Below, in pieces: positions 2-1,340 of a stretch of DNA of 1,340 nt (positions are counted from its first letter, which is position 1; the number at the start of each line of letters is the position of its first letter). Made by a program: the position numbers and the translations under genes. The stretch lies in assembly GCF_003334335.1 (NCBI RefSeq), contig NZ_QOWQ01000109.1. One strand, 5' to 3'. Below the pieces are notes generated by a model. That model made no database searches. It saw only the letters and a program-made list of their open reading frames with translations, and was not told the origin of the DNA. The stretch is from Escherichia coli. GTDB lineage: Bacteria; Pseudomonadota; Gammaproteobacteria; Enterobacterales; Enterobacteriaceae.

Positions 2-24
2 CATAAGCGCTAACTTAAGGGTTG
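2..24. repeat. Terminal inverted repeat, transposase-distal end (IRR), 23 bp
   Basis: Bases 2-24 are an exact reverse complement of 1318-1340. The match breaks immediately inward (gaacca on this side versus gtggta on the other). Confidence 0.9.
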
Positions 25-172: not shown

Positions 173-1285
173 TTAGTTCTTCTTTTCGGATCCGGCACTT
201 CTGGGGGGGAAATCCAGCGATGGCTGGATTATGTCGTCAATTAAAAATGCGGCGAGTAGATTAGCAAATATCCACGCTTTCGCGAGTTCAGGTTCCTTTG
301 CACGCAAAGCATCCAGGTGCAGCAAACTTTTGAGCCGCTTAAAAGCCAGTTCAATTTGCCATCGCAGACGGTAACAATCAGCCACTTGCTCTGCTGAATA
401 TTCATCTTCCGGTAATGATGTTAGCAATAGCACATGGCCCGCTGCTTCCAGCGTTTCCGCCTGAACTACTCGTCCTTTTCGACGATTCTCGCTGAGCAGT
501 CGGGTTTTACTGATTAATGCTTTTTCGGGAGGAAGTGATACGGCAATGAGACGTGCCGGAAAGGGAGCTCCGGCTTTTTTATTACCTGAATTGCCTATCA
601 TTACAGTGGTTTCACCGTTCTTACCGCAATCCAGCCCGCGCAGAAAACCCATCATGTCAAAGCGCATTCCTTCTGCAGTTAACCAGCGCAATCCTCGCCA
701 GTGAACCCGGACGATATAATCAGCTTCTCCAAAAGCAAGTGAGCGGATACATTCGGGACGCGAACCGAATCCCCGGTCAGCAATGCGTATCTCGTCTGCC
801 GTTTGCGCAAATCGGTCCAGCCGTTCAGCGTCTCTGCTGTCGGTTAGCTCAAAATCAGTGAACTGACAGGTATGAGGATCATATCCCATATGTAGTCGCC
901 ATTCAGCGCTGCCGCCCCCGGGCGCACTGATTGCTGTTCCATCGACAAGACGCAATCTCTTTCCGCTTGTACAACCCGTAACTGCGGCGCGTACAGCAAG
1001 TGTTTGTGCGGCAAGTATGCCAAACCAGTCGGCGGCATTCCGCAGCCGCTTCAGGAGAGCCACGTCAGATAATGTTGCAACGTCATGGAGCTGAGCCCAT
1101 GCAGTGACTTCACGTAATGACATCCCCCCGGGGCCGTAAGCCAGCCCCAGACGTAGCAGAGTTGCAGCATCACGAATTTCGCGGCGGCGGGTTAGAGCCC
1201 CGGCATTACGTGCCGAAGTATCCAGTTCTTCGGGCTTACCAATATGGGCCAGAATTGCTGACCAGTTATCGTGAGAGTAATTCAT
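173..1285 (-). CDS. insL: IS186 transposase InsL, IS4-family DDE transposase, 370 aa
   Basis: Continuous minus-strand ORF with TAA stop at 173-175. The track starts it at a GTG (1289-1291); I prefer the in-frame ATG at 1283-1285, which gives MNYSHDNW... and 370 aa. IS4-family motifs are present: VDGT (D codon 941-943), ADRGF (D codon 776-778), and YRLRWQIELAFKRLK (E codon 350-352). The ORF fills the space between the two terminal repeats. Confidence 0.93.
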   Translation of the reverse strand: MNYSHDNWSAILAHIGKPEELDTSARNAGALTRRREIRDAATLLRLGLAYGPGGMSLREVTAWAQLHDVATLSDVALLKRLRNAADWFGILAAQTLAVRAAVTGCTSGKRLRLVDGTAISAPGGGSAEWRLHMGYDPHTCQFTDFELTDSRDAERLDRFAQTADEIRIADRGFGSRPECIRSLAFGEADYIVRVHWRGLRWLTAEGMRFDMMGFLRGLDCGKNGETTVMIGNSGNKKAGAPFPARLIAVSLPPEKALISKTRLLSENRRKGRVVQAETLEAAGHVLLLTSLPEDEYSAEQVADCYRLRWQIELAFKRLKSLLHLDALRAKEPELAKAWIFANLLAAFLIDDIIQPSLDFPPRSAGSEKKN

Positions 1286-1296
1286 CGGCACGTTAA

Positions 1297-1327
1297 ATCA
1301 TATCAGGCGTAATACCACAACCCTTAA
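1297..1327 (-). promoter_or_regulatory. Candidate transposase promoter: extended -10 (TGaTATGAT) with weak -35 overlapping the terminal repeat
   Basis: On the minus strand, TATGAT (1302..1297) is immediately preceded by TGa (1305..1303), an extended -10 pattern about 11 bp upstream of the ATG. The only -35-like hexamers (TTAAGG at 1327..1322, AAGGGT at 1325..1320) are poor and lie inside the terminal repeat. No clear Shine-Dalgarno precedes the ATG. Prediction by eye only. Confidence 0.3.
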
Positions 1328-1340
1328 GTTAGCGCTTATG
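1318..1340. repeat. Terminal inverted repeat, transposase-proximal end (IRL), 23 bp
   Basis: Reverse complement of 1318-1340 is CATAAGCGCTAACTTAAGGGTTG, identical to 2-24. It lies 32 bp upstream of the transposase ATG on the minus strand. Confidence 0.9.

Follow-up and report, generated by a model that had tools for sequence, protein, structure and literature searches.

How does the insertion sequence IS186 express its transposase, and where in the short leader before the gene does transcription begin? The DNA analysed here, a stretch of 1340 nt from Escherichia coli (hereafter the window), is one complete copy of IS186/IS421, a member of the IS4 family. It shows 100% identity over 1340 nt to many E. 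coli genome and plasmid copies annotated as IS186B/IS421, and it also matches IS186A/insL1 of E. coli K-12. IS186 belongs to the insertion sequences that are active in E. coli, both in laboratory and in clinical strains; its insertions in the lon promoter are a known example. Our literature search on the IS186/insL promoter, transcription start, and leaderless mRNA found no published description of its expression signals. An earlier note, made from the letters of the window, had placed an extended -10 element (TGnTATGAT) and a weak -35 in the leader and had proposed a near-leaderless or poorly translated mRNA. We find that the transposase mRNA is leaderless: it starts exactly on the A of the ATG, with no 5' untranslated region and no Shine-Dalgarno sequence. 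It is likely that this mRNA comes from a self-contained promoter of IS186 whose elements (TTGTGG, TATGa, and TTTAAC) lie in canonical register with the start.

The start of the transposase transcript

The following features are needed to read the start maps.

173..1285, (-): IS186 transposase gene (insL, 370 amino acids, DDE_Tnp_1), the single long open reading frame, with its ATG at 1285 and its stop at 173
1283..1285, (-): ATG start codon, whose A (1285) is the mapped transcription start
1318..1340, (-): transposase-proximal terminal inverted repeat, CATAAGCGCTAACTTAAGGGTTG, spanning -55 to -33 from the mapped start

The transposase domain is PF01609 (E = 3.6e-26), and 17/17 aligned homologues begin at a methionine aligned with the IS186 ATG. 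The element tip and the ATG are separated by 55 nt (1286-1340); read on the minus strand from 1340 to 1283, the sequence is CATAAGCGCTAACTTAAGGGTTG, then TGGTATTACGCCTGATATGATTTAACGTGCCG, then ATG. In the K-12 copy the leader is identical to that of the window (100/100 nt), and thus the published K-12 start maps apply directly, with position 15445 of MG1655 corresponding to position 1285 of the window.

Cappable-seq captures 5'-triphosphate ends only. In the Cappable-seq list of transcription start sites (TSSs) of E. coli K-12 (Ettwiller et al. 2016, PMC4782308, Additional file 1), the sole + strand start between 15080 and 15859 is 15445, with a relative read score of 10.0 and a log2 enrichment of 4.15. 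This base is the A of the insL1 ATG (coding sequence 15445..16557). The second + strand copy has its listed start, with an equal score, on the A of the insL2 ATG (607288; PMC4782308). Such equality is expected, as the copies share the reads that fall inside the element. Positions in this list were clustered within 5 nt and the strongest was kept. In the full-length long reads of SMRT-Cappable-seq (Yan et al. 2018, PMC6131387, Supplementary Data 2), a monocistronic b0016 transcript runs from 15444. Since the positions in this table are offset from those of Cappable-seq (8190/8191, 12047/12048, and 17453/17454), the table is 0-based, and 15444 is the same base as 15445. The IS186 start site is already in public tables, and we did not find the leaderless reading for IS186 in published papers. 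Leaderless transcripts are rare in E. coli (82 TSSs, 0.4%), and IS186 adds a multi-copy gene to this very small set.

These data bear on several claims of the earlier note. A promoter inside the 55-bp leader agrees with the 5'-triphosphate start mapped within the element, so that the gene is not transcribed by read-in only. The near-leaderless transcript was correct in kind, and the transcript proved to be fully leaderless; the few bases that had been expected before the ATG are zero bases. The absence of a ribosome-binding site also held, as there is no anti-Shine-Dalgarno complementarity within 35 nt upstream of the ATG; the best anti-Shine-Dalgarno duplexes (-5.0 kcal/mol) fall in the terminal repeat itself.

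SMRT-Cappable-seq also recorded read-in: transcripts that begin at the dnaK and dnaJ promoters run on into insL1 (PMC6131387). Outside the window, dnaK-dnaJ-insL1 and dnaJ-insL1 read-through transcripts are found at MG1655 12122 and 13112, and K-12 IS186A is co-transcribed with the upstream heat-shock operon.

Such transcripts raise the question of whether the transposase is expressed mainly by read-in from neighbouring genes, with the 5' end at the ATG arising from processing or from noise. The starts that Kim et al. 2012 give for insL are all external and upstream; reads inside the repeated element could not be placed in their study. We regard this explanation as extremely unlikely. Cappable-seq selects for 5'-triphosphate ends, the enrichment at 15445 is similar to that of bona fide promoters (thrL 3.6, talB 4.2), and the long reads call the same start as the 5' end of the monocistronic insL1 transcript. 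Moreover, read-in leaves the cross-phylum conservation of promoter geometry described below unexplained.

Proposed promoter elements in register with the start

Counted from the mapped start, the leader contains the following elements.

1315..1320, (-): -35-like hexamer TTGTGG at -35..-30, with TTG as the last 3 bp of the terminal repeat
1299..1302, (-): TRTG extended -10 motif TATG at -17..-14, with TG at 1300..1299 (-15/-14)
1292..1297, (-): proposed non-canonical -10 TTTAAC at -12..-7, which with the preceding TGA forms the family-conserved block TGATT(T/C)AAC
1286..1291, (-): 6-nt discriminator GTGCCG, constant in length and variable in sequence among relatives
1297..1305, (-): TGaTATGAT of the earlier note, present, with the hexamer TATGAT (1302..1297) ending 12 nt before +1

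In the arrangement that we favour, positions 1286-1340 (-) would form a self-contained transposase promoter and RNA polymerase would initiate at the A of the ATG (1285). The predicted elements are TTGTGG (1320..1315), a 17-nt spacer ending in TATGa (TRTGn, 1302..1298), TTTAAC (1297..1292), six nucleotides, and +1. We infer which hexamer is used by sigma-70 from register and conservation. The earlier note had expected a weak -35 that overlaps the terminal repeat, and TTGTGG, on the inner edge of the repeat, agrees with this. A TG is present at -15/-14 from the mapped start, as in extended -10 promoters; the hexamer at -12..-7, TTTAAC, has neither A-11 nor T-7. Sigma-70 promoters with an extended -10 (TGn/TRTGn) likewise have T-17 A-16 T-15 G-14 before the hexamer and a weak -35, but the known ones keep a good -10 with A-11 and T-7. 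A hexamer without these two bases should keep the output modest, and IS186 would show, in a natural setting, that such a hexamer can drive a sigma-70 start.

The obvious competitor is the motif of the earlier note. The TGnTATGAT motif TGATATGAT is indeed present at 1305..1297 (-), with its TG at 1305..1304. It is the sole exact match in the window: TGNTATGAT occurs once, at 1297-1305 (-), compared with 0.05 expected by chance, and at least one match was found in 9/200 shuffles. The looser pattern TGNTANNNT has five occurrences in the window versus 2.0 expected. The -35 candidates for TATGAT are poor, as had been said, since a spacer of 16-18 nt lands on AAGGGT, TAAGGG, or AGGGTT, all inside the repeat. 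A two-hexamer promoter scan of the whole window, which requires A-11 and T-7, returned no promoter.

If TGaTATGAT (1305..1297) were the functional extended -10, transcription should start about 7 nt downstream (1291-1289) and leave a leader of 4-6 nt, or it should start unusually far downstream at 1285. With sigma-70, the distance from the -10 hexamer to the start is about 6-10 nt, mostly 7-8. The dominant start in both datasets, 1285, lies 12 nt past TATGAT and 5 bases out of register, which is too far for a normal -10. Used canonically, TATGAT would start near 1290, where the pyrimidine-purine sites C-G (1292/1291) and T-G (1290/1289) are favourable, but neither 1291 nor 1289 is the reported start. 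An internal control is at hand in the window itself: TATGAT is found on this strand just once more (883..878), and there it drives a start mapped at the canonical distance of 7 nt (871). The TSS at 251, which has TGcTAATCT, is likewise in canonical register. The control at 871 also speaks for TGaTATGAT to some extent, as it is the same hexamer at work. In addition, TATGAT or TACGAT is found at the same place in about a third of the relatives described below, and the 5-nt clustering of TSSs could mask a minor start at 1290. The relatives, however, do not keep the other parts of this motif: its TG (1305..1304) is lost in three close relatives, the second position of its hexamer is G in 24/50 relatives, and only 12-13 nt separate this hexamer from the conserved -35-like hexamers found upstream in the relatives, which is too close. 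In sum, we think it unlikely that TGaTATGAT sets the start. It would rather overlap the true promoter, with its TATG serving as the TRTG motif, and its hexamer would be shifted 5 bp upstream relative to the register in line with the start. The sequence observation of the earlier note was thus confirmed, and its interpretation was partly supported.

Other candidates in the leader were rejected. A second TGn motif, TGGTATTAC (1317..1309), predicts a start near 1302, where none is mapped. By inspection, GCCGATGA resembles a sigma-28 -10, TGG..CTGA resembles a sigma-54 promoter, and AACTT resembles a sigma-E -35. Each of these lacks the partner element or the spacing that a start at 1285 would need, and the relatives conserve none of them; they were discarded.

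The two internal sense starts also deserve a description of their own. The first is at +414 from the ATG (Cappable-seq 15859 and 607702, window 871). TATGAT (883..878) lies at -12..-7 of this TSS, and this -10 overlaps the GATC at 877-880 (TATGATCC). The transcript begins at codon 139 and the next in-frame methionine is residue 207. A protein truncated at the N-terminus could result (compare Tn5 Inh); alternatively, the start may reflect pervasive intragenic initiation. The second is at +1034 (16479 and 608322, window 251; feature 251-266, (-)). It has an extended -10, TGcTAATCT, and is about 250 nt from the transposase-distal end, pointing outward, so this promoter could read out of IS186 into flanking genes.

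Conservation of the leader among relatives

Within E. coli, the leader is at least 99% identical in 2714/2781 records. As the leaders are nearly invariant, within-species variation offers no natural mutagenesis and cannot discriminate between the two registers. We therefore compared more distant elements. Homologous transposases were collected, 17 were aligned, and the loci were taken from representative genomes and metagenomes. The ATG-anchored profile contained 50 distinct leaders, with 31-88% amino acid identity of the transposases.

In the four closest relatives (79-88% amino acid identity), the leader is again 55 nt. TGATTTAAC (TGGTTTAAC in one of them) is kept 6 nt before the ATG, and the six nucleotides vary freely. 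The TG at 1305..1304, which belongs to the motif of the earlier note, is kept in only one of these four and lost in L083, L084, and L085, and TATGAT turns into TATGGT or TGTGAT in close relatives. The TG at 1300..1299, in contrast, is kept in 41/50 relatives. Across the 50 leaders, the information peak is T-17 R-16 T-15 G-14 A-13 T-12 T-11 C-10 A-9, with T-17 in 36, R-16 in 39, T-15 in 41, and G-14 in 41 leaders. TGA[TC]T is found exactly at -15 in 34/50, while the second position of TATGAT is A in 15/50 and G in 24/50. Most alphaproteobacterial relatives have a T(T/G/A)GAC(A/G) hexamer 15 nt upstream of the TG. This spacing fits a -35 for the hexamer at -12..-7 and is too close (12-13 nt) for TATGAT.

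Distant relatives from other phyla have an ordinary -10 in this register. The examples are TGgCATAAT-agaggg-ATG (L053), TTGCGG-17-TATCAT-6-ATG (L060), TTGACG-17-CATATT-6-ATG (L074), TTGACG-17-TAAGGT-6-ATG (L048), TACACT-6-ATG (L040), and TATGCT-7-ATG (L072). The geometry of a -10, six bases, and the ATG is thus a property of the whole clade as judged from these leaders, and it agrees with the leaderless start mapped in E. coli.

The two ends of the elements can also be compared. The second end of the window is as follows.

2..24, (+): transposase-distal terminal inverted repeat, with no TGATT block or -35-like hexamer after it

The terminal repeats of IS186 form a 23-bp perfect inverted repeat, 1318-1340 paired with 2-24. 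Both ends were recovered for 58 elements. In these, the match between the two ends extends over 16-24 bp only, and the -35-like hexamer and the TGATT block are restricted to the transposase-proximal end. Because of this restriction to one end, they are expression signals and not end-recognition signals.

The same comparison bears on another explanation, namely that the TGATT(T/C)A block is a subterminal site for transposase or a host factor such as integration host factor (IHF) in transposition, or a repressor operator, and not a promoter element. In its favour, TGAnTCA forms a short palindrome, GAATC-N5-7-GATTC inverted repeats that resemble the site of a dimeric protein are present in many alphaproteobacterial relatives, and IS10, of the same family, has an IHF site adjoining its terminal repeat. 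A transposition signal is nevertheless expected at both ends, and the block is absent from the transposase-distal end in 58/58 elements. It also sits at -15..-9 of a mapped start, and no IHF consensus match was found in the leader by inspection. Such a site is therefore very unlikely to replace the promoter, and an operator role of TGATT(T/C)A would add to a promoter role rather than replace it.

A possible methylation signal was found in the alphaproteobacterial relatives. CcrM of Alphaproteobacteria methylates GANTC sites, and the conserved core of these relatives, TGATTC, includes one. GANTC is exactly at -14 in 22/27 distinct alphaproteobacterial leaders, and most of the exceptions are offsets in the choice of the ATG. 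In some leaders the middle base differs (GACTC), and often there is a second GANTC at -26 or -24, 10-12 nt upstream. The density of GANTC is 2.85 per 100 nt in these leaders versus 0.16 per 100 nt in the rest of the elements (18-fold); these counts come from sequences related by descent and are not independent events. By comparison, GANTC at -14 is found in 3/16 relatives from other phyla and in 0/4 of the enterobacterial clade. The leader of the window has no GANTC site and has GATTT at the homologous place. Among the alphaproteobacterial loci L003-L076, the GAATC-N5-7-GATTC inverted repeat is conserved at -26..-10, and it is lost in the enterobacterial clade including the window.

The recognition motif of GcrA is TGATTCG, more broadly YGAKTCK (Haakonsen et al. 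2015, PMC4647560). TGATTCA at -15..-9 of the alphaproteobacterial relatives matches YGAKTCK at 6/7 positions; the seventh base is A and not G/T. A ccrM mutant of Caulobacter over-expresses three transposases (Gonzalez and Collier 2015). The alphaproteobacterial leaders thus resemble CcrM/GcrA-dependent promoters in their TGATTCA, often with a second GANTC, whereas the window has GATTT and E. coli has neither CcrM nor GcrA. GcrA, which aids promoter opening through sigma-70 region 2, could compensate for a -10 without A-11. The pattern suggests that dependence of the promoter on CcrM or GcrA might be what makes the odd hexamer tolerable in Alphaproteobacteria, and that IS186 may have lost the GANTC on entering enterobacteria. 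We tentatively propose, as a possibility with less than even chances, that the leaderless transposase mRNA is a conserved cross-phylum design and that transposase transcription in Alphaproteobacteria is gated by CcrM methylation and/or GcrA, and hence by replication and the cell cycle. IS186 would then be a descendant that lost the site by a single C-to-T change at -10 (window 1295) in a host without CcrM/GcrA, a change that also improves the match to a -10. If this is true, the gating would be the alphaproteobacterial counterpart of the Dam/GATC control in IS10 and IS50. The family comparison makes it testable whether transposition in Alphaproteobacteria is linked to methylation control by CcrM/GcrA.

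Several points weigh against a leaderless promoter built on TTGTGG, TATGa, and TTTAAC. A hexamer such as TTTAAC, which lacks both key bases of a -10, should be very weak, and the read score of the start is moderate. No other sequence in the leader comes near TGaTATGAT in its match to the consensus, and a weaker start near 1290 could be hidden by the clustering of TSSs. Both TSS datasets are from one laboratory, and IS186 reads map to all three K-12 copies. In the relatives, the TG might owe its conservation to a GANTC/GcrA-type motif rather than to an extended -10. Finally, the leaderless status of the relatives is read from geometry, and the translation of the leaderless IS186 mRNA is presumed. 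We still consider this promoter the likely one.

Translation, possible insulation, and comparison with other insertion sequences

The earlier note had called the mRNA poorly translated. This is not established, because a 5'-terminal AUG is a specific and recognised signal for leaderless translation. Only transcripts begun at the exact base 1285 would carry a 5'-terminal AUG and could use the leaderless pathway. Read-in RNAs carry the same AUG internally without a Shine-Dalgarno sequence and should be translated poorly, and thus outside transcription should raise the transposase level little. A leaderless mRNA would be a simple form of insulation from read-in, distinct from the Dam, antisense-RNA, and fold-back devices of the IS4-family cousins of IS186.

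IS10 (Tn10) with its pIN promoter and IS50 (Tn5), the studied members of the IS4 family, likewise have a weak transposase promoter within about 100 bp of one end. In IS10 and IS50, the expression is also low and insulated from outside transcription, and the transposase is DDE_Tnp_1. The mRNAs of IS10 and IS50 have leaders with ribosome-binding sites, a Dam GATC in the promoter, and fold-back inhibition of read-in, and IS10 also has the antisense RNA-OUT. IS186 differs from both in that it has no GATC in the leader, no Rfam match, and no conserved fold-back, and in that its transcript begins at the AUG.

These controls were considered for IS186 one at a time. No GATC is present in the leader (1286-1340), and the only GATC sites of the element are at 189-192 and 877-880; Dam control of the transposase promoter was thus rejected. 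An Rfam search of the window gave no match at E <= 1, and control by a known regulatory RNA was rejected. A 14-nt inverted repeat (1293..1280 with 1221..1208, 12/14 complementary) covers the start codon. Its 9-bp core, 1293..1285 with 1216..1208, has -17.1 kcal/mol and z = -3.4 in IS186. The part of the 5' arm of the 1293..1280 repeat that lies upstream of +1 would exist only in read-in RNA. Fold-back inhibition was not retained, as the minimum free energy folds skip the repeat and are no more stable than shuffles (z -0.56 and +0.11), and both pairing and compensation are absent in 7 relatives. It is left as a possibility specific to IS186.

Leaderless mRNAs of E. coli and its mobile elements, such as lambda cI from PRM and tetR of Tn1721, likewise begin at the A of the AUG and have no Shine-Dalgarno sequence. 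Those two are repressor genes, whereas IS186 encodes a transposase; its geometry is kept across a multi-phylum clade of insertion sequences, and its translation by this route is presumptive. IS186 thus resembles other insertion sequences in which one end houses a weak promoter, and it joins the leaderless transcripts of E. coli.

In IS1 (InsA), IS2, and IS30, the transposase promoter overlaps the terminal repeat and is repressed by an element-encoded protein. IS186 is similar in that its -35 lies on the inner edge of the repeat and the repeat is within the expected polymerase footprint, a likeness known from geometry only. With the element tip at -55, a bound RNA polymerase would cover the whole terminal repeat, so that transposase and polymerase might exclude each other. 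Occlusion of the promoter by the transposase is geometrically plausible.

A few observations concern the element outside the promoter. GTGCC is equidistant from both tips, but this was seen only in IS186 and L002 and was treated as chance. A terminator-like hairpin is present at 555-574 (+), antisense to the transposase gene, as GCCGGAAAGGGAGCTCCGGC and then TTTTTTATTA; the window has two terminator-like sites in total versus 1.3 expected from shuffles. The terminal repeat (1318-1340 and 2-24) holds two 6-bp palindromes, AGCGCT and CTTAAG. Its first 15-18 nt (CATAGGCGCTAACTTAAG) are almost invariant across the multi-phylum relatives, whereas the transposase protein is far less conserved (31-45% identity). 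The window stops at the tips of its own element, and flanks were seen in relatives: at the transposase-proximal tip, the 10-20 nt outside the element (L082-L085, L002, and L005) are G-rich and then C-rich, for example gcggggatgtaaccc followed by CATAAG. These flanks fit the known preference of IS186 for G+C-rich targets and suggest that the preference is common to relatives down to 66% identity.

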